Positions 500-61,092 of a DNA stretch of 64,000 nt are shown here, piece after piece. The first letter of the stretch is position 1. Each line of letters starts with the position of its first letter. Under the pieces are notes generated by a model, which saw only the letters and a program-made list of their open reading frames with translations, was not told the origin of the DNA and made no database searches. Origin of the DNA: Candidatus Saccharimonadales bacterium (lineage in GTDB: Bacteria; Patescibacteriota; Saccharimonadia; Saccharimonadales; JBGSXW01); assembly GCA_041751215.1 (NCBI GenBank), contig JBGSXW010000005.1, forward strand, positions 3,664 to 67,663. Direction: 5' to 3'. Both the position numbers and the translations under genes were made by a program.

Positions 500-3400
500 A
501 TGGCAAACCTTTTTGGAAAAAACAAACTACGTGATAAAGCACTGCGATTAGACACTGAGAGCCTAGAAGACAAAATCGCAATTGTTAAAACATGGCATCA
601 CGACTACCACAACGGTAGCCTCAAAAAAGATAAGGAAACCTCTCGCGAACAAGCCTACAATTCAGACTTTTTCATCAAGATTCTCGGCTACAAAGAAAAA
701 CCATCTGTTCCATATAGCTTAGAACCAAAGGCAACCACTGAAAAAGGTCAGTTGCCTGATGCGGTCTTAGGTTTCACAGATGTTACGAAAGGCATTGTTA
801 ATATTGCCGCTGCAGTTGAGCTAAAAGGTGCATCCGTTGAACTTGACCGGCCACAACGCCGCGAGGGTAACATGAGCCCTGTCCAGCAAGGGTTCAAGTA
901 TAAGAGCCAGTATCGCAATTGTCCGTTTGTGATTGTGAGTAATTTCTGGGAGTTTCGTCTCTATCACGATAACCAACTAGACTACGAGCTTTGGACACTC
1001 GACGATCTGATTGACCCTAAAGATGACTACATTAAGTTCAAAACCTTCTACACCCTTATCCATAGCGATAATCTCACAAGTCCGAAGGGTTCTAGCAAAA
1101 CAGAGGACTTATTGAGTGATGTTCGTCTTGAGCAGGAAGAAATCGGTAGAAAATTCTATAAAGTATACGGTCAGGCACGTCATGAACTATTGCGTGATAT
1201 TTATAAGAAAAATGAGCATATAAAAACTGATATTGATACCGGCATCGAAAAGGCACAAAAAATTATTGACCGTATTGTTTTTGCTTGTTTTGCCGAAGAT
1301 CGAGGTTTACTTCCTGACGATACATTGCAGCGAGTTATTAAGGCAGCAGATACTTCTACGTTTGGCGGGTCTTTATGGTCTACCTTTAAGGCGTTCTTTG
1401 AAGCGATTGACGCAGGTAGCGAGAAACTTGATATCCCAGATGGTTACAATGGCGGCCTATTTGCACATGACTCAGTGTTAAATAGTCTCCAGATTAGCGA
1501 TGATGCTTTGCGTTCCGTCGCTAATATTAGTAACTACAATTTCGCCGAAAGCCTGAGTGTTACCATTCTTGGTCATATCTTTGAACAATCCATAAGCGAC
1601 CTAGAGGAAATAAAAAATAAGGTTAATGAAAGTCACAGTCTCAATACATTGCAGCAGTCTCGACGTAAGAAGGATGGCATATTTTATACTCCTGACTACA
1701 TAGTTCGTTACATCGTAGATAACTCACTAGGCACTTACTTGCGTGAATACGAGGAGCGATTCAAGCAAGAGTTTAGCCTCAAAGGTGATATCAACGACAA
1801 AAATTATGAGAAACGCGAGAAGCAGGCTTACAGCAAGTACCAAGAATTTCTGCAAAATGTGAAGGTTGTTGACCCTGCTTGTGGTTCTGGTGCGTTTCTT
1901 GTCTACGTGTTTGACTACTTGCTAGCGGAAAACAAGCGGGTTGCGAGCATACTTGGTAACAACCTTTTCTCGAGTGAAGACTATATAAAGTCAATTCTAC
2001 AAAACAACATTTATGGTGTTGACCTAAATGAGGAGTCAGTTGAGATTACTAAGCTTTCACTATGGCTTAAGACTGCTCAAAAAGGTAAGAAACTTACTGC
2101 TCTTGATGACAATATCAAATGCGGTAATAGCTTGATTGACGATCCTACTATAGCTGGTAGCAAAGCCTTCAATTGGCAAGAACAATTTGCGGATATTTTC
2201 AAAGATGGTGGGTTTGACATAGTTGTAGGCAACCCACCGTATGGTGTTAGTTTTAGTGCCGAAGAAAAAGCATACTTGTCCAAGTTTGATAATCTTGTGT
2301 CAGATTACGAAGCCTATATTTATTTCATATCACTTGTAAAGAAACTAGTAAAACCTGCTGGGATGCTATCCTACATATTCCCAAATACTTTCCTATCGAC
2401 ACTGTACGGTAAGAAGTACCGAGAGCAGCTTTTCTCAAATTATTCAGTTTTTGAAATGGTTGATTTATCGCGTGACCCAACATTTAGTGATGCTAGCGTT
2501 CGCACAGTAATCGTTAGCATTAAAAATTCTTCTAAAAACTATAGTTCACAGCTTAATGTCATAGACATAAGTAAAAATATTGTCTCATTTGCAAAGTATA
2601 GTAAGGATGACTTGTTGAAGAATAGTGAGAATCTACTAGTCCTCTTTACGCGGAGTGACGAAGCCAGTGCGTTAGTACAAAAAATACTAAGACAATCTAA
2701 GCCACTCAAGGACTACTTTTCAATCTCTCAGGGCTTAATACCCTACGATAAGTATCGCGGGCATGATGAGCATACGATTAAAAATCGTATCTGGCATTCT
2801 GATACTAAGAAAGATGAAACATATCGTCGAGAGCTTAAGGGCGGTGATATTACTCGATACTCACTCAACTGGAATGGTGGCTTATGGATTAGCTATGGTG
2901 ATTGGCTTGCAGCACCTCGTGAACCTAAGTTTTTTAGAGAGCCACGAATACTTGTCCGGGAAATCACCGATGATCAGCTTTACTGTGTATTTACAGATGA
3001 GGAATATTACAATACGCCATCATTAATTAATTGTGTAGGTAATAAGGGCGTTGATCAAATGTCAATCCTCGCAATTATGAATTCAAAACTCCTAGGATGG
3101 TATCATAACAACACTTCACCGAAGGCTAACAAGGGATTATTTCCAAAAATTCTCGTCAATGACGTTCGCAACCTACCAATAGTTACACCTACCAACAGTA
3201 AAGAGCTGTCCAGTAGGGCTGCAGTTATGCTGAATTTAAATAACAAGCTCGAAAGTAATTCTCAACACTTTCAAAACCTCCTATCCAGCGAATTCAAGTT
3301 AGATAAGTGGCCCACCAAACTATCAAAGTGGTGGAGACTTGAATTTACTGACCTTGTGACAGCATTAAAACTTAAGTTGTCTCTTCAGCAAAAAGATGAG

Positions 3401-3541
3401 CTGTTGCAGCTTTTTGAAAAGTATCGCCTTGAATGCTCGGAGCTTGACTTAAAAATTAATCAATTCGACCGTGAAATCGACCAGCTTGTCTACGAACTTT
3501 ATGACCTCACTAATGAAGAAACTAACCTTATAGAAAAATAA
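500..3541 (+). CDS. type IIG restriction endonuclease / N6-adenine DNA methyltransferase (MmeI-like fused enzyme)
   Basis: 1013 aa. N-terminal PD-ExK-like motif (PDAVLGF...AAAVELKG). SAM motif I VVDPACGSGAFLV. Catalytic motif IV VVGNPPYG. Long C-terminal specificity-like region. Confidence 0.85.
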   Translation: MANLFGKNKLRDKALRLDTESLEDKIAIVKTWHHDYHNGSLKKDKETSREQAYNSDFFIKILGYKEKPSVPYSLEPKATTEKGQLPDAVLGFTDVTKGIVNIAAAVELKGASVELDRPQRREGNMSPVQQGFKYKSQYRNCPFVIVSNFWEFRLYHDNQLDYELWTLDDLIDPKDDYIKFKTFYTLIHSDNLTSPKGSSKTEDLLSDVRLEQEEIGRKFYKVYGQARHELLRDIYKKNEHIKTDIDTGIEKAQKIIDRIVFACFAEDRGLLPDDTLQRVIKAADTSTFGGSLWSTFKAFFEAIDAGSEKLDIPDGYNGGLFAHDSVLNSLQISDDALRSVANISNYNFAESLSVTILGHIFEQSISDLEEIKNKVNESHSLNTLQQSRRKKDGIFYTPDYIVRYIVDNSLGTYLREYEERFKQEFSLKGDINDKNYEKREKQAYSKYQEFLQNVKVVDPACGSGAFLVYVFDYLLAENKRVASILGNNLFSSEDYIKSILQNNIYGVDLNEESVEITKLSLWLKTAQKGKKLTALDDNIKCGNSLIDDPTIAGSKAFNWQEQFADIFKDGGFDIVVGNPPYGVSFSAEEKAYLSKFDNLVSDYEAYIYFISLVKKLVKPAGMLSYIFPNTFLSTLYGKKYREQLFSNYSVFEMVDLSRDPTFSDASVRTVIVSIKNSSKNYSSQLNVIDISKNIVSFAKYSKDDLLKNSENLLVLFTRSDEASALVQKILRQSKPLKDYFSISQGLIPYDKYRGHDEHTIKNRIWHSDTKKDETYRRELKGGDITRYSLNWNGGLWISYGDWLAAPREPKFFREPRILVREITDDQLYCVFTDEEYYNTPSLINCVGNKGVDQMSILAIMNSKLLGWYHNNTSPKANKGLFPKILVNDVRNLPIVTPTNSKELSSRAAVMLNLNNKLESNSQHFQNLLSSEFKLDKWPTKLSKWWRLEFTDLVTALKLKLSLQQKDELLQLFEKYRLECSELDLKINQFDREIDQLVYELYDLTNEETNLIEK

Positions 3542-5501: not shown

Positions 5502-5558
5502 CATCATCCACCGTGCGCCGGCAGGAACCACTCTTTCCCAAGAGACTCCTGCCGGCGC
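5499..5558 (+). repeat. conserved 3' module of cassette 1 (TGA-CATCATCCACC + 40-nt nested hairpin CGGCAGGAACCACTCTTTCCCAAGAGACTCCTGCCGGCGC)
   Basis: The 40-nt core 5519-5558 is identical to 6599-6638. Confidence 0.8.
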
Positions 5559-6578: not shown

Positions 6579-6638
6579 CCATCATCCACCCCTTGCGTCG
6601 GCAGGAACCACTCTTTCCCAAGAGACTCCTGCCGGCGC
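6576..6638 (+). repeat. conserved 3' module of cassette 2
   Basis: TGACCATCATCCACC plus the same 40-nt hairpin as 5519-5558, followed by a T-run. Confidence 0.8.
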
Positions 6639-6664
6639 ATTTTTCTTTTCATCGCCCTTTTCCA

Positions 6665-6854
6665 CGCATCAGCTAAAACTCCTGAATTTGGGAGGGAGAA
6701 ACCCGGCGTAGCGAGGACTGTCCGCCAGCCGGCGGACGGGTTCCGCAGCCGCCCGAGTCCTTGGGTGAGCCAAGCTCATGAGAGTTTTTACAGCAGCGGG
6801 AAAGTTTTGAGCCACTTTTTAAAAAGTGGCGACCACCCCCGTCGTGGAAACGAC
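6665..6854 (-). repeat. element A, copy 1 (subfamily A1)
   Basis: Near-identical over long stretches to 47225-47395, and reverse-complement homologous to 19134-19311 and 55449-55636. Contains the palindrome GCCACTTTTTAAAAAGTGGC (6811-6830). Confidence 0.8.
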
Positions 6855-9641: not shown

Positions 9642-9807
9642 TGGCGTCCCGGGAGGGATTGACCTGACGGTCCGTTTCCTCACGTGCTCTCCGCCTAAGG
9701 CGGATGTGCGCGTTCGTCACGAACGAACCCGCCGCTACGCGGCACGGGGTTCTCATCATTTTCGAAAAGCCAAACGTTACAGTCCACCTACGGTGAACCG
9801 CAGCGTT
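9642..9807 (+). repeat. 147-nt GC-rich insert related to element A, plus a 19-nt duplicate of the tRNA-Arg 3' end
   Basis: TGGCGTCCCGGGAGGGATT occurs at 9642-9660 and again at 9808-9826 (inside the tRNA). The interior has GAGAACCCC..CGTAGCG..TCCGCC-TTAG-GCGGA, resembling the A1 core. Confidence 0.6.
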
Positions 9808-9884
9808 TGGCGTCCCGGGAGGGATTCGAACCCCCGACGCCCGCCTTAGGACGGCGGCGCTCTATCCAGCTGAGCTACCGAGAC
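9808..9884 (-). tRNA. tRNA-Arg (anticodon CCT), CCA encoded
   Basis: Hand-folded cloverleaf. Acceptor GTCTCGG/CCGGGAC. D-arm GCTCAGCTGGATAGAGC. Anticodon arm CCGCC-GTCCTAA-GGCGG. T-arm GGGGGTTCGAATCCCTC. Confidence 0.85.
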
Positions 9885-17925: not shown

Positions 17926-18414
17926 CTAAGCGTTGTCCTCGCAGTAGCTACCGCCACCCTCAAGCATAATAACAACAGCTACGTTTCTTGCGCCGCCTGA
18001 GGCCAAGCCAGCAAGAGCTGATCCGGACTGACATACAAGTCCCGATCCAACCACGATGTCGCCTGGTTCAGGGTCATAGGTGCCACCAGCGTATGCAGCA
18101 AGATAAACAGTTACGTTTTCCACCTGGTAGTTATTGCCAGTAGTAGGATCGGTTATTCCCTCTGGCAAATAATCTTCCATTATTGGATCAAACGTTGCAT
18201 TGTTAAGAATAGCGGGGTACTGTCCGTTATTGTTGCCGGCATAAGTTTCAAGTGCGCCCAGTATCCTAGCGGCGTCCTTCTTTCGCTGCGTATCACGACG
18301 TGATTTTTGCAGTTGTGGCAAGGCCAAGAAGACTATCAGAAAGATCAATCCTGCGATTGCAAGGACGAGCACGACCTCGATGATCGTGAAGCCGCGCTCG
18401 TTTTTCTTCAACAT
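17926..18414 (-). CDS. type IV pilin (paralog 1)
   Basis: ERGFTIIEVVLVLAIAGLIFLIVFLALPQ; C-terminal Cys pair. Confidence 0.8.
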   Translation of the reverse strand: MLKKNERGFTIIEVVLVLAIAGLIFLIVFLALPQLQKSRRDTQRKKDAARILGALETYAGNNNGQYPAILNNATFDPIMEDYLPEGITDPTTGNNYQVENVTVYLAAYAGGTYDPEPGDIVVGSGLVCQSGSALAGLASGGARNVAVVIMLEGGGSYCEDNA

Positions 18415-18434
18415 ATTATGTTGCCCTTAGTTGC

Positions 18435-18938
18435 TTATTGGTTATCCTGGCAGTAAGAACCAGTTTCTAATCGCATCACTATAGCGATATCTCGGCTACC
18501 AGAACCAGTTGCAATGGCTTCGCCAGAACAGACACCGTTAGTAGCATATCGGAAGTTACCTGGTGTGGTCCCTGCGCTACCTACTCCAAAAGTTGAAGTA
18601 GTTGGTGTTGTGCCAGTTGATGGTGGGTTAACACCATAACCAAGACCGCTGGTTGGGTCTAAGTAGTTGTCCGATAGGTACGTTGTTGCAAAGCTGGTGA
18701 AGCTGTTTGCTCCACTGGCAGCAGCAGCTGGATATACTCCGCTGTTGTTACCGGCATAGCTCTCAAGTGATGAAAGCATACGGCCAACGTCATTCTTGCG
18801 CTGTGTGTCGCGTCGTGAACGTTGTAATTGTGGCAAGGCTAGGAAGACGATCAAAAAGATCAATCCTGCGATTGCCAGTACTAATACGACTTCGATGATG
18901 GTGAAGCCTGATTCTTTACGATTGGTTGTTTTTTGCAT
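18435..18938 (-). CDS. type IV pilin (paralog 2)
   Basis: ESGFTIIEVVLVLAIAGLIFLIVFLALPQ; ATG at 18938 chosen because AGGAGGG lies 8 nt upstream (the track ORF extends to 18965). Confidence 0.8.
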   Translation of the reverse strand: MQKTTNRKESGFTIIEVVLVLAIAGLIFLIVFLALPQLQRSRRDTQRKNDVGRMLSSLESYAGNNSGVYPAAAASGANSFTSFATTYLSDNYLDPTSGLGYGVNPPSTGTTPTTSTFGVGSAGTTPGNFRYATNGVCSGEAIATGSGSRDIAIVMRLETGSYCQDNQ

Positions 18939-18988
18939 GTTTGCCACCCTCCTGTTAGTTGGCATTACATATAAATGCTCATGCCCTG

Positions 18989-19016: not shown

Positions 19017-19072
19017 TAGATAAAATCAGATGGATGCAATAACTATCCACAGGGTGCCTGCAAGGCGGCTAT

Positions 19073-19126
19073 GACACCTTTTAAAAAAGGTGCCCCAAAA
19101 CCTTCCCGTTGCTACCAAAACATAGT
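19073..19126 (+). repeat. partial element A head (palindrome GACACCTTTTAAAAAAGGTGCC + CCAAAACCTTCCCGTTGCTACCAAAACA)
   Basis: Reverse-complement match to 47341-47393. Confidence 0.7.
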
Positions 19127-19133
19127 TTCTTTT

Positions 19134-19311
19134 GTCGCTTGCCAGCGACGTGGCATTGCCACTTTTTAAAAAGTGGCTCAAAACTACCCCGCTGCTACTA
19201 AAACACTCATGAACTTGTTTCGCACAGAACTTGGGTTACTGCGGAGTACGTATGAACAGTCCTCGTCACGCCATGTTCTGTCCTTACAAGTTCAGAGATT
19301 TTAGTAGATGC
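19134..19311 (+). repeat. element A, copy 3 (subfamily A2)
   Basis: Hairpin GTCGCT-TGCC-AGCGAC; palindrome 19158-19177; closing helix CTACTAAAA../..TTTTAGTAG; core GCGGAGTACG..ACAGTCCTCGTCACGCC. Confidence 0.8.
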
Positions 19312-19350
19312 GGGTTTATCCGAACATCTGACCCTATTTTCAGGGATGAA

Positions 19351-19490: not shown

Positions 19491-20708
19491 TCAGACGGCT
19501 ATGGATTGGCCAACTAGGCCGTAAACTGGTAGCAAAATCGCCGCCACCAACAGTCCCGCCACCAAGGCCAAAACAATCATTAACACTGGTTCAATGGTCG
19601 AGGAAATCGCTTTAATTTCGTCATCAAGTTCTCGCTCGTAGTAAAGGGCGGTCTTTTCAAGCATCTTGTCTAAGCTGCCAGACTGCTCACCAATTCGGAT
19701 CATCTGCGGAACCAATGGCAAAAAGTTCTGATCGTCTTTTAGAGACTCAGACAGCGCCGTACCAGACTTAACTCTCTCGGACGCATGCATAACTGATTCT
19801 TTAATATGTACGTTATTTACAGCGTCTCCGGTAATGCGAAGCATTTCTAGCATCGGCACTCCACTGGCAGTTAGCGTTGTAGCGGTTCTAGCAAACCGAG
19901 CCATGTACATCTTCATAAACAAACGACCAAATATCGGAGCTGTCATCTTTAGCCTGTCACCGGCTCTACTGCCGCTACTGGACCTAAAGTATTTGGCGAT
20001 CATGTAGCCAACAATTCCAAAAAGAACGATTAGCGCATACCAGAACTTGATAATAAACTTAGCGATTGCCAGCATAAAAGCTGTAATAAATGGCAGTGAT
20101 TGTCTCAAGTCAACGTAAAGCTGCTCAACCTGGGGCAAGACAGTGGTTAACATGAAGATCACAACGCCACAAATAACCACCAACACAATGATTGGATAGA
20201 TCATGGCTCCACGAACTTTGGCAATAACTTCGGCGTCTTTTTCTTGCTGATCAGCGATGCGCTCCAGGGCTTTATCGAGCGTACCCGACGCCTCACCGGC
20301 TGCCACCAAGCTAACAAAAACTGTGTTAAATACCTTAGGGTGTTTTGCCAGCGAGCTAGCAAAAGTGCCACCGGCTTCAACATCTGTAATAACCTCGCTG
20401 ATTATCACCTGTAGAGGCTTGCTATCAGTTTGCTCTGACACGGTTCTAAGCGACTGCACCAGCGGAAGACCAGAGTTAATCATGGTCGAAAGCTGACGAG
20501 AAAACAGAACTTTATCTTTAGACTTAATGCGGTTTCCAAACCGACCCTTCAGACTGGTGTCTTTGGCGTCTTTGAGCTTGATTTCAATTGGCGCCAAACC
20601 CTCTTTGCTGAGTTGCTTGGCAGCTGCCCGCTCGTTATCAGCCTGCATCAGTGCGGTGATTTTTTCACCGGTCTTGGAATCTCTGGCTGTATATTCAAAA
20701 GTTAACAT
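19491..20708 (-). CDS. pilC: type IV pilus assembly platform protein (GspF family)
   Basis: 405 aa, two GspF-type repeats, three TM segments. Confidence 0.85.
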   Translation of the reverse strand: MLTFEYTARDSKTGEKITALMQADNERAAAKQLSKEGLAPIEIKLKDAKDTSLKGRFGNRIKSKDKVLFSRQLSTMINSGLPLVQSLRTVSEQTDSKPLQVIISEVITDVEAGGTFASSLAKHPKVFNTVFVSLVAAGEASGTLDKALERIADQQEKDAEVIAKVRGAMIYPIIVLVVICGVVIFMLTTVLPQVEQLYVDLRQSLPFITAFMLAIAKFIIKFWYALIVLFGIVGYMIAKYFRSSSGSRAGDRLKMTAPIFGRLFMKMYMARFARTATTLTASGVPMLEMLRITGDAVNNVHIKESVMHASERVKSGTALSESLKDDQNFLPLVPQMIRIGEQSGSLDKMLEKTALYYERELDDEIKAISSTIEPVLMIVLALVAGLLVAAILLPVYGLVGQSIAV

Positions 20709-20714
20709 GGTTGT

Positions 20715-21782
20715 TTAGCCGCGCATTAGGCGGTCAAGCTCCTCGATATCAACCGCAAAGTTGCGGGCTTCTTCGTAAGTTATGGTTCCGGCGTGAATTA
20801 GCGATACTAGTGTCTTGTCCATCGATTGCATGCCGTGCTCAGCACCGGTTTGAATTACGGCATCAAGCTGGTGAGATTTGCCTTCACGGATGATGTTACG
20901 AACAGCTGGCGTAGCTACCATGATTTCAGCCGCCACCATTCGCCCACCGCCGATAGCCGGAACTAGACGCTGCGACACAATGGCCTGCAACATGGCGGAG
21001 AGCTGAGCCCGAATCTGTGGCTGCTGGTGTGGCGGGAAAACGTCAATCATACGGTCAATCGACTGAGCAGCCGAGTTGGTGTGAAGGGTTGCAAACACCA
21101 AGTGGCCAGTTTCGGCAATGGTTATGGCTGCAGCAATAGTTTCGAGGTCGCGCATCTCACCGATCAGCACAACGTCGGGGTCTTGGCGCAAGCTTGAACG
21201 CAAAGCTGCCGAGAATGAATAGGTGTCGTAGTGAACTTCTCGTTGCACTACTACAGACTTCTTGGATTTGTGCGTAAACTCAATTGGATCTTCGATGGTA
21301 ACAATGTGCTCAGCACGCTCGGTGTTAATCTTGTCGATAATTGCAGCCAGCGTTGTTGACTTACCTGAACCGGTTGGACCGGTTACAAGAACTAGGCCAC
21401 GTGGATACTCGGCAAATGAGCTAACTACTTGAGGCAGACTCAGCTCGTCGATGGTTTTAATCTCATTAGGAATAAGGCGAAGTGCTGCCGCCATGTTTCC
21501 TCGCTCATGAAAAGCGTTAACACGGAAGCGACCAAGATCGCCAAAGGCAAACGAAAAGTCGAACTCTTTATCTTTAATAAGTATCTGCTTTTGGTCCTCG
21601 TCTAAAATTGCAAAGACTAGAGATTCTACTTGTTCTTCATTAAGATTTTCGGCACCGCTAACGGCTTTAAGTGAGCCATCAACACGGAGCATTGGCGGTA
21701 AGCCAACTTGCAAGTGAAGGTCAGAAGCTTTTTGCTTGATGACTTCTTCTAGTAGTAGTTCGATTCTTAGATTATTCGCCAT
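20715..21782 (-). CDS. pilT: twitching-motility retraction ATPase
   Basis: Walker A GPTGSGKST; TIEDPIE; Walker B/Asp box DPDVVLIGEMRD; His box ATLHTNSA; ~355 aa. Confidence 0.85.
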   Translation of the reverse strand: MANNLRIELLLEEVIKQKASDLHLQVGLPPMLRVDGSLKAVSGAENLNEEQVESLVFAILDEDQKQILIKDKEFDFSFAFGDLGRFRVNAFHERGNMAAALRLIPNEIKTIDELSLPQVVSSFAEYPRGLVLVTGPTGSGKSTTLAAIIDKINTERAEHIVTIEDPIEFTHKSKKSVVVQREVHYDTYSFSAALRSSLRQDPDVVLIGEMRDLETIAAAITIAETGHLVFATLHTNSAAQSIDRMIDVFPPHQQPQIRAQLSAMLQAIVSQRLVPAIGGGRMVAAEIMVATPAVRNIIREGKSHQLDAVIQTGAEHGMQSMDKTLVSLIHAGTITYEEARNFAVDIEELDRLMRG

Positions 21783-21805
21783 TTGTGTGTCCCCTCCCCG
21801 GAGTA

Positions 21806-23617
21806 TTAGGCGCTGTCAATGGCAGCGACGCGATTAACTTCCTCGAGCGTTGTCATCCCAGCCAGAGCCTTCAGGTAGCCGTCCTCGCGCATGGTAATCA
21901 TACCTTGCGCTTGCGCTGCTCGTTGAATCTCACTACTGGTTGAATGATTAAGGATTAACTCCTCAATGTGCTCGTCGATCTCGAATACCTCATAGAGGCC
22001 GAGACGACCTTTATAGCCGCCCGGGGCAGATCGCGTGTCTTTGCCCTTATATAAAGTATAAGCATTTTGGTTAGCCAAGGGCAAGCTCTCGTATCCGAGG
22101 TCCTTGGCAACCGCCGACATCTCTTCCTGGTTTTTGGGCAAAATGTGACCGATAGTTTCATTGATAGCCTGAGTCTCAACCTTGCTAGACTGATAGACCT
22201 CAGGCTCGCCGCCGATTCGTCTAACCAATCGTTGACCGATAACAGTATTAACCGTCGACGCAATCAAAAATGGCTCGATTTGCATGTCGAGAAGTCGAGG
22301 CAAGATGCCGGCAGCCGAGTTGGTGTGAAGCGTAGAGAAAACCAAGTGACCAGTCAAAGCTGCCTGAGTTGCCAGCTCGGCGGTTTCTTTGTCGCGGATC
22401 TCTCCGACCATCACTACGTCTGGGTCTTGGCGCAAGATTGAGCGCAAACCAGTAGCAAAAGTTAGACCAACTCCAGGGTTAATCTGAATCTGGTTAACGC
22501 CGCTAATTTTGTACTCTACCGGATCCTCGAGCGTCACAATGTTGATTTGCTCGTTCTTAATTTCCTTGATCATGGCGTACATCGAGGTCGACTTACCAGA
22601 ACCAGTTGGGCCGCTGGTTAGAACCATGCCGTTAGGACTAAGCAGGCCTTTTTTAATGGTTCGTAGTGCTCGGCCGGTGTAGCCCATGTCCGCCAAATCC
22701 ATGCTAGTGCCGGTTTTATCCAGCAAACGAATTACTATCTGCTCGCCCCAAACGGTTGGCGAAATCGCAATACGCAGGTCGATCTCTTTTTGCTTCACTT
22801 TAAGAGTAAACTGTCCGTCCTGAGGAACTCGGTGTTCATCAATCTTTAAGTTTGAGAGAATCTTTACTCGAGACACCAGCGCGGCTTCGGTGCTTTTGGG
22901 CAGATGCATGACTTCGCGCAGCACGCCGTCGACTCGAACTCGAATTTTGACTTCTTTTTCGGTTGGCTCGATGTGAACATCGGAAGCTTCGCTATCGGCA
23001 GCAAATTCCAAAATTGTAGTTAGCGCGCGGCTAATCGGCGAATCTTGTGAAACCGTAACAACTTCTTTATCACGGCCCAGCTCGGTGGTGGCGTCCGCTA
23101 GTTCTTTGGTATCGATACCTTTTATGCCTCCGCCGGTGGCTTGTCCTAAGGCGTCTGTAACTCCCCGCTTTATATCAGTGCCATACTGGCTAATAACATG
23201 CTTAATTCCCTCCTCGGAGGCCATATAGACCTTAAGGGGGCGTCCAATCTTCTGACTTAGGTAGTCGGCTGCCTGAACGTTATCGGCATCTAGCATGGCA
23301 ACTACTAGCCGATTCTGCATTTCTCCTAGCGGAACCGCCATAAAACGCTCAGCCGCATCTTGTGGCAGTAGATTTAAGATATCTGGGCTAACAGTTGCTT
23401 TGCTTAAATCAACGTATGGCAGATTTAAAACTTTTGCCGTTGCTTTGGTTAGTTGTTCCTCGCTAACTTTGTGGTTCTTAATAAGGTACGTTAGCAGCGG
23501 CTCGCGCAGCTGGCTGGCCGTTTTTTTGGCATCATCTAGTTGGGGCTTGGTCATTGCCCCTTGGGTTACAAGCAGATCGTAGACCTGCTGCTGATTGGTT
23601 TCAGATAGAACGCTCAA
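21806..23617 (-). CDS. pilB: type IV pilus assembly ATPase (GspE family)
   Basis: N-terminal MshEN/GSPII-like repeats; GPTGSGKST; LEDPVE; DPDVVMVGEIRD; STLHTNSA. Confidence 0.85.
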   Translation of the reverse strand: MSVLSETNQQQVYDLLVTQGAMTKPQLDDAKKTASQLREPLLTYLIKNHKVSEEQLTKATAKVLNLPYVDLSKATVSPDILNLLPQDAAERFMAVPLGEMQNRLVVAMLDADNVQAADYLSQKIGRPLKVYMASEEGIKHVISQYGTDIKRGVTDALGQATGGGIKGIDTKELADATTELGRDKEVVTVSQDSPISRALTTILEFAADSEASDVHIEPTEKEVKIRVRVDGVLREVMHLPKSTEAALVSRVKILSNLKIDEHRVPQDGQFTLKVKQKEIDLRIAISPTVWGEQIVIRLLDKTGTSMDLADMGYTGRALRTIKKGLLSPNGMVLTSGPTGSGKSTSMYAMIKEIKNEQINIVTLEDPVEYKISGVNQIQINPGVGLTFATGLRSILRQDPDVVMVGEIRDKETAELATQAALTGHLVFSTLHTNSAAGILPRLLDMQIEPFLIASTVNTVIGQRLVRRIGGEPEVYQSSKVETQAINETIGHILPKNQEEMSAVAKDLGYESLPLANQNAYTLYKGKDTRSAPGGYKGRLGLYEVFEIDEHIEELILNHSTSSEIQRAAQAQGMITMREDGYLKALAGMTTLEEVNRVAAIDSA

Positions 23618-29718: not shown

Positions 29719-29892
29719 GTTGCTCACTGTGATTTTGAGGTGGAAATCTCGTTAATCGCGGCACTTTTACAAACTGGGCTATCCAGGGAACAATGACTGC
29801 AAGATCAAGATTGTGGCCATCGTCCCCTGGATAACCATGGGAAAAACCGGCGCCTAACCAAGCGCCCCGAACCTCAGAAAGAGGTGATTTTG

Positions 29893-30594
29893 ATGAAGCA
29901 TCCCCGCTTCCTCATCGGAGCGCTCGCCATCATGGCGCTGTCGCTCTTCGCAACCCCGGCCTTCGCGGCCACCGCAACCATCAGCCCCGCCATGGGGCCG
30001 GCTGGCACCATCGTCAACATCAGCGGTGGCGAGTGCCTGCCGACGGAGGAGTTCCCGGTCCATCCTCGGGTCGGTTTCCTCGTCCGCGACGACGACGGCA
30101 ACGAGATCCACTTCGACCTCAACGTCGATGTCGACGAAGAAGGCATGTGGAGCTTCAGCTACGAGATCCCTCTGGTGGATACGGAGTACCTGGAGTTCCT
30201 CGCGTTCTGCAGCGGTGGAAACGGTACGGATCCGGCTCAACTCGTCGACTACGACAGCCTGATCTTCACCTACGCCGAGATCGGCCCGCCTCCGACCACG
30301 GAACCCGAGCCGACCACGACCACCACCGAGGCACCGCCGACGACCGAGCAGCCGACCACCACGGTCGAGCAGCCCGAACCCACGACGGCCCCGACGGTCG
30401 CACCCACGGTCATCACCAACCCCGAGTTCACCTCGCCTCCCGGCGGCGGTGTCCAGACGGACGGTGGTGTCCCTGATGAGGCTGCGCACGAGCAGAACAA
30501 CGCGCTCGTGTTCGGGATCATGGCCGGGTTCTTCGCCCTCATGCTGTTCCTGACCAGGAACAAGAAGGCCAAGAAGGTCAACAGCACGGAGTAG
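29893..30594 (+). CDS. GC-rich secreted surface protein: signal peptide, Pro/Thr-rich linker, C-terminal hydrophobic helix + basic tail
   Basis: ATG after AGAGGTG; signal peptide MKHPRFLIGALAIMALSLFATPAFA; PTTEPEPTTTTTEAPPTTEQPTTT; C-terminus ALVFGIMAGFFALMLFLTRNKKAKK. Confidence 0.7.
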   Translation: MKHPRFLIGALAIMALSLFATPAFAATATISPAMGPAGTIVNISGGECLPTEEFPVHPRVGFLVRDDDGNEIHFDLNVDVDEEGMWSFSYEIPLVDTEYLEFLAFCSGGNGTDPAQLVDYDSLIFTYAEIGPPPTTEPEPTTTTTEAPPTTEQPTTTVEQPEPTTAPTVAPTVITNPEFTSPPGGGVQTDGGVPDEAAHEQNNALVFGIMAGFFALMLFLTRNKKAKKVNSTE

Positions 30595-30804
30595 TTCTTC
30601 CCAGCAATGCCCAGCAAGCGAGCGGTCCGGGTGGGTCATTTGATTACAGACTCAACATCTGAACATCATCTGATCCACCCGGCCCTCGCAACACACTTTT
30701 CTAGGATAGATACAGATCTCACATCTGATTAACAGATGAGAAACCTATACCTGAACTAGAAACAACAGAGGTGACACTTTATTTCCACCCCTGTTATAAT
30801 GGTA

Positions 30805-30833
30805 TTGCTTTTTATTGACTAATTTGGTATAAT
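30805..30833 (+). promoter_or_regulatory. promoter candidate (TTGCTT-17 nt-TATAAT with TG extension)
   Basis: AT-rich block upstream of a ~250-nt leader preceding the sortase gene. Confidence 0.45.
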
Positions 30834-31091
30834 ATACAAGTTCAGTTGGGAGACTCTTAACTGATGAAGGATCAACATAATGATCCGACCTTACCAAGCT
30901 TTGGCAGCAAATTGTCTAGGGATTCTTACCCGGAACTACACCCCGCCCTCCCTGGGAGCACACCATCCAATCTATTCCATCGTACTCCTCATTCGCTTAA
31001 ATAATCGTGAGAATCATCTGAGAACTTTCCGCGTAGGACTCCCTAGACAAGGGACATTCGTCATCTGGCGAATTACAACAAAGGAGCAACA

Positions 31092-31835
31092 ATGCGCTTC
31101 CCCAAGCACATCCTGTTTCTGGTCTGGTTGACACTCGTGTTTTCCCTGACCAGCGGGTCGGTGCAGCAGGAGCGCTTCATGCTCCCTCCGCAACCCACCC
31201 AGGCGGCCGCAGAAGCACCTGCGACCACCACAAGCACCACCGAAAGGCGGGATCGTGTACCAACGTCCCAGGCGTCGACCAGACCCAGCAACCCGGCAAC
31301 AACAGCTCCAGCGCAGCCGACAACGACAGCGCCGGAAACCACGCCGGAACCCGCGGGAATCCCCCGCGTGGTGGTCGAATCGATTGGGGTGGATGAACCG
31401 CTCGTCGTAGGCAACTACTTCGACGAGAACGGCAACATCTCCCCGCCGTGGCAGACAGCCAACCTCTACGGGGGCGGCTCCATGCCTGGACAGGTTGGCA
31501 CGAGCCTCATCGCAGGCCACGTTTCGTCATCGACCTATGGACCCGATGTGTTCTACAACCTCGGGAACATCCAGATCGGCGACATCGTACAGGTCAGCGA
31601 TGGCACCACCAACTTCACCTATCAGGTGACGCTCATCCGCGTTCAGGACAAGCGCCTGCTCGCAACCAGCGAAGCCCCTGGTGAAGATCCCGACGCCGTC
31701 ATTCAGTGGTCTGACATGGAACGCGTGACCGATTGGTCCGTGCTCTACCTGATCACCTGTGGTGGCGAGTTCGGAAATGTCCGCCCGGGTAGTTTCGATT
31801 CGAACATCATCGTTCGAGCCGAGATCGTCCCCTGA
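31092..31835 (+). CDS. sortase family transpeptidase (class F-like), GC-rich
   Basis: AAGGAG SD; N-terminal TM; catalytic His context LIAGHVS; catalytic Cys motif LYLITCGG; conserved Arg near the C-terminus (IIVRAE). Confidence 0.8.
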   Translation: MRFPKHILFLVWLTLVFSLTSGSVQQERFMLPPQPTQAAAEAPATTTSTTERRDRVPTSQASTRPSNPATTAPAQPTTTAPETTPEPAGIPRVVVESIGVDEPLVVGNYFDENGNISPPWQTANLYGGGSMPGQVGTSLIAGHVSSSTYGPDVFYNLGNIQIGDIVQVSDGTTNFTYQVTLIRVQDKRLLATSEAPGEDPDAVIQWSDMERVTDWSVLYLITCGGEFGNVRPGSFDSNIIVRAEIVP

Positions 31836-32004
31836 CCCCGCTCAGCCAGAGCAAAACCAGGGCTGGAGGCCGCATGAGGAGAAGGTTGATCGTACTTAAC
31901 GATCCCCTTTACACTCCCTTGCGCGCCTCCAGTCCTAATCACACCCTTTGATTATTCGAACAGTTGGCCTAGCAAGGCTTAAGCCAAGAGTTCGAGAAAT
32001 TAAG

Positions 32005-47173: not shown

Positions 47174-47224
47174 ATTCCTGCTTTCGCAGGAATGACCTGC
47201 CTAGCGGCAGGCAGGCTGGAGCCG

Positions 47225-47395
47225 CGCATCAGCTAAAACTCCTGAATTTGTGAGGGAGAAACCCGGCGTAGCGAGGACTGTCCGCCAGTTGGCGGACGGA
47301 CTCCGCAGCTACCCGAGTTTTGACTGAGCAAATTCAAGGATTGTTTTAGCTGCAGCGTGAAAGGTTTTGGGGCACCTTTTTTAAAAAGGTGTCGT
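47225..47395 (-). repeat. element A, copy 2 (subfamily A1)
   Basis: CGCATCAGCTAAAACTCCTGAATTTG.GAGGGAGAAACCCGGCGTAGCGAGGACTGTCCGCCAG..GGCGGACGG matches 6665-6740 almost base for base; palindrome at 47371-47393. Confidence 0.85.
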
Positions 47396-47399
47396 TACG

Positions 47400-53692: not shown

Positions 53693-55345
53693 TTAAGACT
53701 GTGGCTGCGGCGGAATCGGTGGTGGCGATCCGGGCAGGTTTGGAATCACAAAATCATTGCTCGATGGCGGCGGTGGTGGTGCTTGAGGAGGAGACTGCAT
53801 GGCTTCTGGTTGAGTTTGCGGTGCTTGAGGTGGAGTTGGGACCGGGCTTAAGCCTGGGGGCGGAAATGGAGGGGGCATGTCTGGTGGCATATCAGTTGGA
53901 GCGCTTGGCATCGGCGCCGGAACTGTTGCTGGTGGTGGCGAGAATGTATCTAGAACCGGTGCCTGATCTAAAACTGGCATGTCTGGCAGCGGCTGCGAGC
54001 CTACCCCCTGCTTGGGGTTGTTGTCAGGAAAGAAATCTCCGCCGGAAATTGCGTTTTCAACCGCAGCTCGAGCTTCATCTACACCAACCTTTGGTGCTTG
54101 AACTGGATTGGTTGGCTCAGGTGCCGAAGTTGCTGGCTGACTAAAGTCTAGCTGCCCTGTGGGCTCAACAGGATGGGCTAAAATCTCGTTATTGAGCTTC
54201 TCTTTTTTAGCTGCAGCCTCTTCTTGCGCGTAAGACGAGGTGGCGTTAAATGTTCCTCCAAGCGTTGGATTCTCGGAAGCATCTTGCTCTTTTGGTCCGG
54301 ATCCGCGTGCAGGGCTTATAAACGGCGCTTTGTTGTCTATAAGTGAACTATCTAAAGGCTTGACCTCTGGAATTGCTGGTTCGGGGGCCTTTTCGGGAGT
54401 GTCGATGATCGCCGGAGTTGGTTCGTTGATTGGCTCGGGAAGTTTTATTTCTTCGGTTGGCTTAGATTCCTCGGATTTTTCGGTAGGCTTTGGTACTTCC
54501 GGTAGGTCTTCGTCATCGTGCGAAACCTTGGCACTGGCCTCAGTTGGAGCGCCCTCTTCATTAATGTTTAGCTCGGTGCTGCTTTTGACTGGCTTGCCGT
54601 CCTCTCCTAGATTCTGAGCAATTAACTGCTGGTTTGCACCGGCTGCCATAAGCTGAGCTGACATTGTCATAACCTTAGGACTGGTGCGCTCGTTACTAAA
54701 GCGATCGGTGGCTGCTACAATTCCGGTTAAGAAAGCGGTGGCCATCTGGGCATCTATAATGTTGCCCTCTAGTGATTCGCTGATGCTAACAAGCATCTCG
54801 CTTAGACTGCCCGCGCTTGGTTCGTGCCAGTCGATTGAACCAATATTACTGGTAGTCTCACCGGTGTTAACGCCAATAACTGATGCGTCGTGCAAGATTC
54901 GGCCGTGTGCAGCAATTGCTGCATCGATGTCGTCACGATTGGTAACGCCTAGGGCAACTACGGCATCAACATTAAAGTCCCCTTGCTCAAATCGGATATC
55001 ATCTTTGCCAATCTTAGTTCTATAAGGAGTAATAAAGATTTTTACTACATCGCCATCAACTTTGTAGCGAAGCTTGTCGGCTTTGTCTTTATCGAGCGAA
55101 ATAATGAAGTCCCGAAGCGAATCAACTGTAGTTTCGATAGTTTTTTGAGGCTCCAAAAACTCCATGGTGTCGGGCACTTTGCCGCTAAATACACAGGTGG
55201 TGTGCTTGCCGAGTTTGTTGAGCATCAAAGTCAATCCAACTGCCGATGCTAACTGATCGACGCTTGGATTTTTGCTTACCGTCACCAAGACGTTATTGGC
55301 TTGGCGAAGCTTTTCGGCAACTTGCTGTTTCGCGGTTTGTTCCAT
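53693..55345 (-). CDS. DHH/NrnA-like N-terminal domain protein with a long Pro-rich C-terminal tail
   Basis: The N-terminal ~300 aa resemble the degenerate DHH-DHHA1 architecture. The last ~250 aa are P/A/E/Q-rich low complexity. ATG at 55345 (MEQTAKQ) preferred. Confidence 0.45.
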   Translation of the reverse strand: MEQTAKQQVAEKLRQANNVLVTVSKNPSVDQLASAVGLTLMLNKLGKHTTCVFSGKVPDTMEFLEPQKTIETTVDSLRDFIISLDKDKADKLRYKVDGDVVKIFITPYRTKIGKDDIRFEQGDFNVDAVVALGVTNRDDIDAAIAAHGRILHDASVIGVNTGETTSNIGSIDWHEPSAGSLSEMLVSISESLEGNIIDAQMATAFLTGIVAATDRFSNERTSPKVMTMSAQLMAAGANQQLIAQNLGEDGKPVKSSTELNINEEGAPTEASAKVSHDDEDLPEVPKPTEKSEESKPTEEIKLPEPINEPTPAIIDTPEKAPEPAIPEVKPLDSSLIDNKAPFISPARGSGPKEQDASENPTLGGTFNATSSYAQEEAAAKKEKLNNEILAHPVEPTGQLDFSQPATSAPEPTNPVQAPKVGVDEARAAVENAISGGDFFPDNNPKQGVGSQPLPDMPVLDQAPVLDTFSPPPATVPAPMPSAPTDMPPDMPPPFPPPGLSPVPTPPQAPQTQPEAMQSPPQAPPPPPSSNDFVIPNLPGSPPPIPPQPQS

Positions 55346-55448
55346 GTAGTTAATCTTTTTTGTTTTTTGCAATAAGCTATCAGGGGTAGAGTAGCATAAC
55401 CACATTGCTAGGTCAACCGGGACGCATTACAGAGCAAGGATCTGCATT

Positions 55449-55636
55449 GTCGCTCCCGCGACGGGGCAATGCCACTTTTTATAAAGTGGCGTTGGAACTC
55501 TCCCGCTAACTACCAAAACAAAACTCATTAGTCTATGGGGCCAAAGAACTCGGGCAACTTGCGGAGTCCGTCTGAACAGTCCTCGTTGCGCCGGGTCTTT
55601 GGCCGCACAGCCTTAAAGAGGTTTTGGTAGAGACGG
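55449..55636 (+). repeat. element A, copy 4 (subfamily A2)
   Basis: Hairpin GTCGC-TCCC-GCGAC; palindrome GCCACTTTTTATAAAGTGGC (55471-55490); helix CTACCAAAAC../..GTTTTGGTAG; core GCGGAGTCCGTCTGAACAGTCCTCGTTGCGCC. Confidence 0.8.
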
Positions 55637-55727
55637 AAAGTTACAGGAAGGGCTTTACATCTCACCTCTGTTAGTGTATATTCATCCCCTGAAACTAAAT
55701 TAAGTACGGGTTTCGTACTTAGGTGTA

Positions 55728-59650: not shown

Positions 59651-59780
59651 AGTTCAATAGTAACAGAACGTGTATTCAAACATTGTTGCCTTTTTTGCAA
59701 ATAGTTGTAGTATTAACTCAAGTGTACGGTTGGTGCCGTGGACTTGTACCTATACATTCTAGTGATGCAGGAGGTGCATC

Positions 59781-60374
59781 GTGTTTGATGATAGAGGTTC
59801 AACGACAGGCACCGCAGCCGGTGTCTTTGTGGGTGCAGTTGGCCTGTACTCCATCGTGCAGTTCTTTCTGCTGTTCATGGCAGCAGCTGCCATGGGAGTG
59901 GGCATCCTGGTGTTTCTGGCGGTTCTTTGTGTGTACGGAGTGATCAAGTTCCTCATTCGAGCTGCAGAGTTCGATGAAGAGTGGTACCGCAATGTCGGCC
60001 TCGCTCTGTTCTGCACCGGTGTTGCCGCAGCCGCGGGATACTTCATCGGTGTCGAGCTGGGCTTTTCTCAGGTTCTGGCCGACTTCATCGTGAACGGCGA
60101 GGAAGCGAGCGAGATGCGCAGCAACTCGATCATCTACCCGCTGATCACTCTCTTCTTCGGCATCCTGCTCGCGGGCTCGTACTTCTTGGGTCTCCCGATC
60201 ACGCTGTGGATCTTCGCGACGGACGATTTCGATGAGTGGTGGGAGATGGCTTGGTTCCCGAGCCTCAACTTCTTCATCCTGATCGTCCTCATGGAGGCTG
60301 CTCGTCTCGATCTGGGACCCCTCCAGGACGAGATGCCGACCCTGTGGGAGGCGTTCACGCAACCCTTCGGTTGA
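59781..60374 (+). CDS. polytopic membrane protein, tandem paralog 1 (GC-rich)
   Basis: GTG start after GGAGGTG; N-terminus VFDDRGSTTGTAAGVFVG; C-terminus TLWEAFTQPFG; 4-5 TM helices. Confidence 0.6.
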   Translation: MFDDRGSTTGTAAGVFVGAVGLYSIVQFFLLFMAAAAMGVGILVFLAVLCVYGVIKFLIRAAEFDEEWYRNVGLALFCTGVAAAAGYFIGVELGFSQVLADFIVNGEEASEMRSNSIIYPLITLFFGILLAGSYFLGLPITLWIFATDDFDEWWEMAWFPSLNFFILIVLMEAARLDLGPLQDEMPTLWEAFTQPFG

Positions 60375-60402
60375 CCCCTAGTTACTTCGGAAAGGAGTAA
60401 TC

Positions 60403-61092
60403 GTGTTTGATGACCGTGGTTCCAGCAGCGCTGGAACGGCCGTAGGTGTATTCCTCGGTATGGCCGGTATGTACTGGCTTGCTGTGCTCTGCACCTATGT
60501 GCTCTTCGCGTCCATAGTGGGTGCCCTGGTGGGTATCATCCTGGTCGTGGTTTACATCAGCTTCGTTATCTTTGCGGTTGGCAAGGTCCTGATGTCGATT
60601 TCTAAAGCAGGAACTGCTGGCTTCAGGATTATCGGAGTAGCCCTTGGCTTTGGAGCTGTGGCTGGAGTAATAGCTAGCTTCGCGTCTGGTTTCGGTGTAG
60701 CCGAGTGGATTGATGTAACGCTCGCTAGCTTCGGGAGCTACAACGAGGAGAGCCTGCCAGAAGTGCCTGCTTGGCGCACATATATCGTTGCTCCAATACT
60801 CGGCCTGCTCACTGTCGGCGCATACTTCGGTGGCATTCCATACGTCCTGGTCACATTGAGCTTCACTCTGGATGAAATTTTGGAGGATGAAGACGACTCG
60901 ATAGCCAAAACACCAGAAGGGTCGTTTGACCCGGACTACATCCTCATCGGAGGAAGCCTGGTGGGGTTCCATCTTGCGATAGTGACCTTCATCATGGTCA
61001 TGTTCATCGAGTCCGAAAGAGCGCACATGCTGCGACTCGGCGAGGACGTTCCATCACTACTCGAGGCCTTTTTCCAACCTTGGATAATGTAA
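60403..61092 (+). CDS. polytopic membrane protein, tandem paralog 2
   Basis: GTG start after AAGGAG; N-terminus VFDDRGSSSAGTAVGVFLG; C-terminus SLLEAFFQPWIM. Confidence 0.6.
   Translation: MFDDRGSSSAGTAVGVFLGMAGMYWLAVLCTYVLFASIVGALVGIILVVVYISFVIFAVGKVLMSISKAGTAGFRIIGVALGFGAVAGVIASFASGFGVAEWIDVTLASFGSYNEESLPEVPAWRTYIVAPILGLLTVGAYFGGIPYVLVTLSFTLDEILEDEDDSIAKTPEGSFDPDYILIGGSLVGFHLAIVTFIMVMFIESERAHMLRLGEDVPSLLEAFFQPWIM

Follow-up and report, generated by a model that had tools for sequence, protein, structure and literature searches.

The window analysed here, a 64-kilobase (kb) stretch of contig JBGSXW010000005.1 from a Candidatus Saccharimonadales bacterium (assembly GCA_041751215.1, positions 3,664 to 67,663), carries four full copies, c1 to c4, of a structured intergenic repeat, all of them single, i.e. 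unpaired. c1 follows a forward-strand terminator-like hairpin (6591-6638, with a T-run behind it) and precedes the stop codon (6880) of a convergent DUF1761 gene, and c2 lies between dapF (+) and the RNase J gene (-), ending a few nucleotides (nt) before the RNase J stop codon (open reading frame (ORF) end 47400). c3 has a T2SS-F/PilC-like gene (19491-20708) on one side and the promoter-like site of a pilin-like gene (18435-18965) on the other, and c4 lies between the divergent S20 gene rpsT (55819, +) and an ORF of 570 amino acids (aa; 53693-55405, -). Comparisons within and beyond the window show that these copies are diverged members of a large cross-phylum family that is absent from Rfam 15.

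For alignment and structure prediction all copies were oriented as the forward strand of c1. So oriented, they align across approximately 170-190 nt with a mean column identity of 72% (MAFFT), and a repeat finder independently recovered their relations (D2, D3, D13, I1-I3, I6). A covariance model built from the four copies (R1), run over the 64-kb window with filters off, scored them at 137-176 bits (E<=1e-27), bearing out the places assigned to them in a preliminary description of this DNA, and gave a partial copy (19070-19150, -) at 31 bits; elsewhere in the window it returned only reverse-strand echoes of the copies, or scores below 12 bits. The partial copy had been described as a 'head' of the element near 19073-19126. 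Its existence stands but not its identity, as in the orientation used here it represents a further 3' module, a duplicate placed behind c3. Its sequence is close to the tail of c2, with 26 nt that match 47361-47386 exactly in inverted orientation (I6), and tail duplications of this kind are also present behind some copies elsewhere, including those of Rhodocyclaceae. A terminal hairpin of varying but paired stem (GTCGY...RCGAC), reported earlier, is present in c1, c3 and c4 and absent from c2, and both the T5A5-centred palindromes and the GTCCGCC-N4-GGCGGAC hairpin added in c1 and c2 are present as described (Table 1). The conserved core, of which the preliminary description had given the reverse complement, reads CGAGGACTGT...TCCGCAG; the least variable stretches of the alignment are CGAGGACUGU and (G/C)UCCGCAG. 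The label 'GC-rich' applies only mildly (44-57% GC in the copies vs ~48% in the window).

Table 1. Coordinates of the window copies and their parts, with scores of the covariance models built from the window copies (R1) and from family tips outside the window (R2)
Feature	Coordinates	Strand	Sequence	Score
c1, full element	6662..6854	+		R1 160 bits; R2 28.5 bits, E=1e-6
c1 P1a	6662-6667 with 6796-6800	+	CC(A)CGC with GCGGG	
c1 P1b	6672-6679 with 6784-6791	+	GCUAAAAC with GUUUUUAC	
c1 core, 5' half	6712-6721	+	CGAGGACUGU	
c1 apical (extra) hairpin	6720-6737	+	GUCCGCC-AGCC-GGCGGAC	
c1 core, 3' half	6740-6748	+	GUUCCGCAG	
c1 U-tract (S1)	6805-6808	+		
c1 palindrome	6811-6830	+	GCCACU5A5GUGGC	
c1 terminal hairpin	6841-6854	+	GUCGU-GGAA-ACGAC	
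c2	47222..47396	+		R1 152 bits; R2 20.7 bits, E=3e-4
c2 core	47272-47281	+	CGAGGACUGU	
c2 apical (extra) hairpin	47280-47297	+	GTCCGCC-N4-GGCGGAC type	
c2 core, UCCGCAG	47302-47308	+	UCCGCAG	
c2 GUUUUAGC	47343-47350	+	GUUUUAGC	
c2 U-tract	47365-47368	+		
c2 palindrome	47371-47393	+	GGCACCU6A5GGUGUC	
c3	19134..19314	-		R1 176 bits; R2 20.3 bits
c3 P1a	19314-19310	-	CCCGC	
c3 core	19265-19256	-	CGAGGACUGU	
c3 core, UCCGCAG	19245-19239	-	UCCGCAG	
c3 palindrome	19177-19158	-		
c3 terminal hairpin	19149-19134	-		
Extra 3' module duplicated behind c3	19070..19133	-	GUUUUGGUAG-CAACGGGAAGG-UUUU-GGGGCACCU6A4GGUGUC	
Palindrome of the extra 3' module	19094-19073	-		
c4, most diverged copy	55449..55638	-		R1 137 bits; R2 6.3 bits, E=7.8
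c4 core	55585-55576	-	CGAGGACUGU	
c4 UCCGCAAG	55565-55558	-	UCCGCAAG	
c4 palindrome	55490-55471	-	GCCACUUUAUAAAAAGUGGC	
c4 terminal hairpin	55462-55449	-		

The window repeats are a real structure-conserving element. RNAalifold predicts for c1-c4 a closing helix, a long interrupted helix and the T/A palindrome, with 93.7% of cells paired and 10 of 44 pairs changed on both sides, a number reached by one of 500 shuffles; this agrees with the compensatory stem changes noted earlier. Sliding the structure by 1-3 columns lowers pairing to 36-48% and leaves no more than three double-sided pairs. Folded alone, c3 forms one continuous rod (-78.6 kcal/mol, z = -7.6), and the c1 fold has a z of -3.1.

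A scan of one genome per species with the pattern CGAGGACTGT-N(3-24)-ACGNNNTCCGCA gave at least 119 loci, and relatives with the core number at least 130. Most scanned loci carry a uniform motif, CGAGGACUGUYUGAG-[small hairpin]-CGAGUUCCGCAG; the sequences flanking it pair with each other, yet are wholly different between lineages. The canonical unit is thus a long variable hairpin (the rod) capped by this near-invariant motif, which contains tandem G.A pairs, and the family's units are approximately 170-330 nt long. Taking the taxonomy of record titles at face value, by which some assignments of metagenome-assembled genomes (MAGs) may be wrong, the carriers include Rhodocyclaceae, Azonexus, Uliginosibacterium, Methylophilaceae and gammaproteobacterial groups including Halopseudomonas isolates; among Patescibacteria, Saccharimonadales, Parcubacteria, Gracilibacteria, Peribacteria, Portnoybacteria and Nomurabacteria; and further Lachnospiraceae, Eggerthellaceae, Bacteroidales, Treponemataceae, Elusimicrobiales, Myxococcota and Gastranaerophilales. 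Copies beyond the window, which the preliminary description had proposed to look for, thus occur in other Saccharimonadales (L013, L014, L075, L087, L091, L095, L098) and in about ten labelled phyla, including Pseudomonadota, Patescibacteria, Bacillota, Actinomycetota and Bacteroidota. This count is to be read with care, because two loci labelled Phycisphaeraceae (L008) and Pontibacterium (L104) have very similar copies and flanks and share neighbouring ORF families, and one of these MAG assignments may be a binning error. Carriers usually have several copies, and single genomes can hold many: one gammaproteobacterial MAG has 19 or more and one Rhodocyclaceae MAG 12 or more. A canonical copy had no BLAST match among PLSDB plasmids, and a pattern scan of IMG/VR gave two chance matches and no canonical copy.

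R1 matches seven copies in five Saccharimonadales loci at 26-59 bits (L075, L013, L098 and L014 among them). In an alignment of ten sequences the window copies and these Saccharimonadales relatives have the same order of parts, and 13 of 22 predicted pairs are kept through changes on both sides, so that the covariation proposed earlier as a check is found in the window copies and in wider family alignments alike. A second covariance model, R2, was built without window sequences, from 69 diverse tips and their 22-nt flanks; its top three matches in the window, with filters off, are c1, c2 and c3 (E-values 1e-6 to 4e-4; Table 1), compared with 45-73 bits on canonical copies. Because R1 finds relatives and the window-free R2 recovers c1-c3, the window copies are homologous to the family but diverged. 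Under R2, c1-c3 have the tip helix CGAGGA/UCCGCAG with its flanking co-varying pairs, and the window copies have the long rod closed by a CCCC/GGGG-type P1 in which compensatory change is kept. All four lack the UGAG/CGAG part of the tip, i.e. the 5-nt bulge UGUYU and the tandem G.A/A.G. In its place stands a helix of UGU with ACG, closed at its apex by GUCCGCC-N4-GGCGGAC in c1 and c2 and by a tetraloop in c3 and c4, the apical hairpin of c3 being shrunk to UGU-UCAU-ACG; the 'extra hairpin' of c1 and c2 therefore occupies the position of the family's variable apical hairpin. The 3' module of the window copies consists of UUUU followed by a loop-less T5A5 palindrome, with a degenerate tract (UUCCAA) in c4, and since these tracts are homopolymeric, a mirror tract cannot be told from a direct one. 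We regard the window copies as a simplified variant, since a plain helix replaces the G.A/bulge tip and a loop-less palindrome the triplex region described below; as such they indicate that the CGAGGA/UCCGCAG helix and the rod are what persists of the motif once the rest is lost. A metagenome scan for the window variant of the tip gave only canonical copies and chance matches, and no close relative.

In the canonical tip (alignment A6), pairs 20-22/74-76 and the pairs of the small hairpin co-vary, e.g. pair 22-74 is GC in 34 sequences, CG in 18, UA in 4 and AU in 3, and pair 40-59 is CG in 22 and GC in 20. The tip covariation score is 0.25; shuffles score 0.08 and slid structures no more than 0.11. 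The tandem positions are G.A in 67 of 69 and A.G in 69 of 69 sequences; they lie between a GGAC/GUUCC stem and the hairpin, together with the 5-nt bulge, and a second G.A/A.G tandem often comes next. The UGU-ACG fold accepted for the window variant was rejected for canonical members because it conflicts with the co-varying hairpin pairs. The rod, taken as 60 nt on either side of the tip, pairs with a mean of -49 kcal/mol, and the modelled strand folds better in 83 of 118 units. Isolated mismatches within rod helices are more often G.U than A.C (25 vs 10), the hairpin base often has a U.G wobble, and the G.A tandems and the pyrimidine third strand are present on the modelled strand only; like the folding, all of these favour that strand. 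In the gammaproteobacterial MAG CAXBFG01 (L006, L021, L033, L042, L051, L058, L063, L079 and others) the repeated unit is longer (~330 nt), with a conserved 5' extension from CCTGTCGTCAGACGG, often after TGACGAC (a hairpin), and a 3' end ...TTTCAAACTGACGCACTACC; these copies are without the 3' triplex-type hairpin.

Behind the rod, copies from proteobacteria, the candidate phyla radiation (CPR), Elusimicrobiales, Bacteroidales and some Firmicutes carry a 3' module of fixed order: GCGGGG and a few nt, a U/C tract (S1) followed by GG, a hairpin with a U/C-rich 5' arm (S2) and an A/G-rich 3' arm (S3), and often CUCGCC. S1 is the mirror of S2 and not its copy, the mirror fitting better in 19 non-redundant informative cases and the direct arm in 3, with 11 ties. 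A single C shifts in step across S1 and S2 (L040, L085, L113, L099, L106, L069, L037, L045 and others), as in UUUCUUUU/UUUUCUUU/AAAGAAAA of L040 vs UUUUCUUU/UUUCUUUU/AAAAGAAA of L085, and a G in S1 stands opposite an inverted A-U pair of S2/S3 in L016, L039 and L076. A mirror pyrimidine tract does not form Watson-Crick pairs with S3 and can lie parallel to it as a Hoogsteen strand; to judge from pseudoknot geometry, the groove of the 5-base-pair base stem could be bridged by a GG linker of 2 nt. Since S1 mirrors S2, it can occupy the major groove parallel to the purine arm, and the tract patterns suggest that the 3' module of canonical members may form a U.A-U/C+.G-C triplex. As an alternative to this cis triplex, which would count against it, paired members could interact in trans: in the Rhodocyclaceae MAG 5N065 (L007, L015, L017, L022, L023, L034, L072, L092, L110) the pyrimidine tracts are mirror images between the members of a pair (A type S1 UUCUUU, S2 UUUCUU; B type S1 UUUCUU, S2 UUCUUU), so that the upstream tract of one member could form Watson-Crick pairs with the purine arm of the other. 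The same MAG has one or two further repeats of ~105 nt behind the 3' hairpin (GGGCGAACUCCCGGCC ... GCAAGAAAGGGC). The family likely acts as a folded single strand of the given orientation, most simply RNA; its conserved tip would be recognised by something, and its 3' module could form a triplex. In reviews of 2020 and 2026, bacterial RNA triplexes are documented only in riboswitches and group II introns, and stability triplexes only in eukaryotic, viral and eukaryotic-transposon RNAs (PMC7583470, PMC13541005).

The preliminary description had matched the element to no known RNA family, and the database searches agree. At gathering thresholds Rfam 15 found only tRNA in the window and in 18 related loci, and at E<=10 it gave nothing credible around c1, in the 9.6-kb region or in two canonical elements. 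Some proteobacterial copies resemble c-di-GMP-I by eye (ACGCACAGGG ... GUAGCGGGG), a likeness that has no Rfam support. Hammerhead and other ribozymes, integron attC sites and group IIC intron insertion were rejected for absence of their defining sequence features or neighbour genes, as was mimicry of 6S, Y RNA, signal recognition particle RNA or 5S. A repeat scan of the window revealed no CRISPR array, and the sole similarity to a CRISPR direct repeat had E=6.6, giving no indication of an array or trans-activating CRISPR RNA. Full-text literature searches with the core as a DNA or RNA string found only unrelated primers, and searches for CPR repeats, kink-turn repeats and bacterial triplex small RNAs brought up no account of the element.

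No gene is linked to the family. Clustering of all ORFs (120 aa or longer) that lie up to 2.5 kb from 104 copies (96 loci) gave no recurrent protein family, only element-overlapping ORFs or common housekeeping families; neighbours sampled elsewhere are guaB, guaA, ABC ATPases, kinases and hydrolases. Contexts vary and no neighbouring gene family recurs, in accord with the earlier view of a dispersed structured element and not a gene-specific regulator. Where copies lie close together, 20 of 23 pairs are head-to-head, and the two members differ in rod sequence. In Rhodocyclaceae the repeated unit is the whole pair with its ~350-nt spacer, and in the Saccharimonadales locus L075 two pairs have the same two-type composite in opposite orientations.

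These arrangements bear on the main rival explanation, a single-stranded DNA (ssDNA) hairpin element of the kind represented by repetitive extragenic palindromes (REPs), their doublets (REPINs) and bacterial interspersed mosaic elements (BIMEs), or by the palindrome-associated transposable elements (PATEs) of the IS200/IS605 insertion sequences (ISs). The rod would fold during replication or transposition, the tip would be the recognition or nicking site of an unlinked HUH/Y1 enzyme, and the head-to-head two-type doublet would be the mobile unit, like the Y/Z pairs of BIMEs. The dispersed, multi-copy, intergenic nature of the element and the repetition of whole pairs in Rhodocyclaceae and L075 speak for this explanation, and HUH origins show the same combination of a variable stem and a conserved tip. 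Promoter-like sites before the window copies or in the L035 and L075 spacers do not exceed what shuffled sequences give, the opposite strand folds almost equally (mean -46 vs -49 kcal/mol), and sheared G.A pairs and pyrimidine-motif triplexes form in DNA too. However, no Y1/RAYT (REP-associated tyrosine transposase) or other transposase lies within 2.5 kb of the 104 copies, and no transposase, reverse transcriptase (RT) or Y1 gene is among the 20 window ORFs tested. Relative to the window's uniform GC skew, the copies favour neither strand (two on each). Inspection of the window copies revealed neither terminal inverted repeats nor target duplications, and flanking direct repeats were absent by eye, at copy boundaries that are themselves uncertain. 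The rod arms are long inverted repeats, a feature of miniature inverted-repeat transposable elements (MITEs), with outermost ends that are not conserved between lineages and uncertain boundaries. Known REPs are, to our knowledge, 20-40 nt long, specific to RAYT lineages and not conserved across phyla. We consider the ssDNA explanation rather unlikely, although it comes closest to the one we prefer.

The family also has a preference for gene ends, with 24 convergent and 5 divergent contexts, which could be expected of a purely cis-acting element of the type of the enterobacterial repetitive intergenic consensus (ERIC) or REPs that terminates transcription or stabilises the 3' ends of neighbouring mRNAs, whose copies would be kept for this service, and that has no trans function. 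Copies abut the stop codons of convergent genes, as c2 does that of RNase J, and in L075 the pairs are wedged between convergent genes with their hairpins from a few nt to about a dozen nt after the stop codons. The reverse strand of c3 has a GUGGC-loop-GCCAC hairpin followed by U5, which was flagged as terminator-like and looks like a terminator for the gene running into c3; the same layout (GUGG-loop-CCAC and U5) is discernible by eye on the reverse strand of c1, and is absent from those of c2 and c4. Yet a terminator or stabiliser needs no tip of ~27 nt conserved across phyla, and no 3'-module hairpin on the element's own strand has a U-run, the sole match on the c1 strand being an internal rod hairpin; nor were the canonical hairpins flagged as terminators in L035 or L075. 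Moreover, c4 sits in a divergent promoter region, and c1 sits behind the terminator-like hairpin of the upstream gene. That hairpin belongs to a 48-nt repeat (5511-5558 and 6591-6638, 96% identical) and is followed at its second copy by ATTTTTCTTTTC, so that it is likely a forward-strand intrinsic terminator. Although c1, c2 and c3 probably serve as end-of-gene structures as well, an exclusively cis-acting role seems unlikely.

A contig from Logan adds 3.6 kb upstream of the window and holds an IS1595-family transposase (L150, 1131-1988), 2.2 kb upstream of the window's first long gene and ~2.7 kb beyond the window start, and no extra copy of the element. As a further explanation, an orphan scaffold or guide RNA, such as the omega-RNA of TnpB/IscB, an IS110 bridge RNA or an RT template, whose protein gene lies elsewhere, would account for an element that is multi-copy, patchy across phyla and absent from Rfam and has a strongly conserved RNA core, and the IS1595 transposase lies just outside the window. 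IS1595 enzymes, however, are not known to us to use RNA, and none of the ~130 copies adjoins a TnpB, IscB, IS110 or RT gene. No variable guide-like segment is evident, and there is no match to HEARO, IS605-orfB motifs or another Rfam family. This explanation is the least likely of those considered and appears very improbable.

The explanation we find most plausible, and hold tentatively as somewhat short of probable, is that the dispersed element is a stable, self-contained transcribed RNA module that spreads as a non-autonomous repeat. Each unit, read on the forward strand of c1, folds as one long imperfect hairpin, with a base formed by CCCGC/GCGGG plus CUAAAAC/GUUUUAG and a tip formed by the helix-with-defects CGAGGA/UCCGCAG. 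In canonical members the tip continues through the 5-nt bulge (UGUYU), the tandem G.A/A.G and the small variable hairpin in a kink-turn-like arrangement, and behind the rod come the U/C tract and the hairpin of one pyrimidine and one purine arm. The unit would be transcribed as a stable module, its conserved tip may be the docking site of a conserved trans-acting partner, and the 3' triplex or hairpin may shield the 3' end from 3'-to-5' exonucleases. Its DNA would propagate as a non-autonomous repeat, in many cases through head-to-head pairs of two types, and survive mainly in harmless space at gene 3' ends. We infer transcription, triplex formation, partner binding and mobility, the last from copy number, sharp repeat boundaries and patchy phyletic spread. 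A stronger version, in which the family is a new cross-phylum class of bacterial noncoding RNA (ncRNA) genes, often in divergently transcribed two-type pairs, with a kink-turn-like tip recruiting a conserved partner, cellular or selfish, and a genuine 3' U.A-U/C+.G-C triplex, is possible but doubtful.

Several observations weigh against the transcribed-module explanation. Besides the promoter counts and the near-equal folding of the two strands given above, the G.U to A.C bias is only 2.5:1, which is moderate, whereas 5:1 or more is expected of well-established RNAs, and orientation relative to co-directional gene pairs is even (23 vs 24). The search pattern forced part of the invariance of the tip, although it left YUGAG, the GU of GAGUUCC and the final G unconstrained. 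In the window copies there is no G.A motif, and the T5A5 palindrome would allow a triplex no more than ~3 U-A pairs; c4, which has lost its U-tract, is barely recovered by R2 (Table 1).

Other features of the window are noted here for completeness. A region at 9661-9807, described earlier as a related short copy of the element, had no R1 or R2 match (E<=10, filters off) and did not align. On the minus strand it comprises ~145 nt of GC-rich hairpins, flanked on one side by the 3' end of tRNA-Arg(CCT) and on the other by a 19-nt repeat of this end; the repeat, AATCCCTCCCGGGACGCCA, occurs at 9808-9826 (the tRNA end) and 9644-9662 (minus strand). The tRNA-Arg-bracketed insert of the 9.6-kb region has no Rfam match, and 9644-9826 looks like an attachment (att) scar or a remnant of a small tRNA-targeting integrative element. 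The first 4 kb of the window are 38-40% GC, compared with ~48% elsewhere, and encode an MmeI-type restriction-modification enzyme (500-3541); the start region is probably a horizontally acquired island. Between 4.4 and 6.7 kb, overlapping ORFs on both strands have no Pfam match, and long overlapping ORFs on both strands are also found at 29800-31900 and 59700-61100, where GC is 55-58%. Adjacent ORFs within 17926-18965 share a 183-nt repeat (18211-18393 vs 18726-18908, 75% identity), and 44-66-nt repeats of 83-86% identity lie ~1244 nt apart in 20715-23617 (21067-21204 vs 22311-22448); the ORF at 18435-18965 has a pilin N-terminal methylation motif. Both sets of repeats point to tandem paralogues, and the genes may belong to a pilus or secretion cluster. 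The host's RNase J is at most 70% identical to any relative in the protein collection searched, in which this Saccharimonadales lineage is without a close relative.

If the proposed assignments are correct, the family would be among the most widely distributed bacterial structured elements missing from Rfam, and its conservation without a linked gene would point to a conserved partner or a chemistry yet to be described. The mirror-repeat 3' module would be a testable candidate for a bacterial stability triple helix and, were the family an ncRNA class with a triplex, it would be the first RNA-stability triplex in bacteria, an analogue of the ENE/MALAT1 elements of eukaryotic transposons and long noncoding RNAs (lncRNAs). 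The family also accounts for 'empty' intergenic stretches and spurious ORFs that recur in the annotation of many MAGs.

Among known systems, ERICs, or intergenic repeat units (IRUs), are imperfect palindromes with a conserved centre that form one long RNA hairpin, are intergenic in either orientation and do not code for protein. The family shares the long-hairpin fold, the intergenic dispersal, the conserved central part and the absence of coding capacity. ERICs, however, are ~127 bp long and confined to Enterobacteriaceae and Vibrionaceae, whereas the family spans about ten labelled phyla and has a non-palindromic G.A tip, a 3' triplex-type module and two-type head-to-head pairs. With REPs, BIMEs and REPINs it shares multi-copy extragenic hairpins at gene ends, inverted two-type doublets (Y/Z in BIMEs) and compensatory change. 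In contrast to REPs of 20-40 nt with a 5' GTAG, its units are 5-10 times longer, its core is cross-phylum, and no RAYT is found near the copies examined. IS200/IS605 PATEs and omega-RNAs are likewise non-autonomous, multi-copy and widespread and carry a structured RNA, but the family forms a rod instead of a multi-stem pseudoknotted scaffold, has no evident guide segment and has no TnpA, TnpB or IscB gene nearby. The tip is similar to a kink-turn in its GGAC/GUUCC stem, 5'-strand bulge, tandem G.A/A.G, non-canonical stem and strand order; it differs in having a bulge of 5 nt (UGUYU) rather than 3 and an extra U in the C-stem, and in its absence from the window copies.

The ENE, MALAT1 and PAN elements resemble the 3' module in that two U-rich strands sandwich an A-rich strand near a 3' end in U.A-U (and C+.G-C) triples, and in the family the third-strand tract co-varies as a mirror. 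Theirs is a U-rich internal loop clamping a downstream A-tract, whereas the family's would be a 5' tail in the groove of its own hairpin, so far a signature in sequence. Triplexes of the ENE/MALAT1/PAN type are known only from eukaryotic lncRNAs, viruses and eukaryotic transposable elements (PMC7583470, PMC13541005). Dispersed structured intergenic repeats are already represented by ERIC, REP/BIME and MITEs, none of which is known to have a cross-phylum core, two-type head-to-head pairs or a triplex signature; these features set the present family apart.

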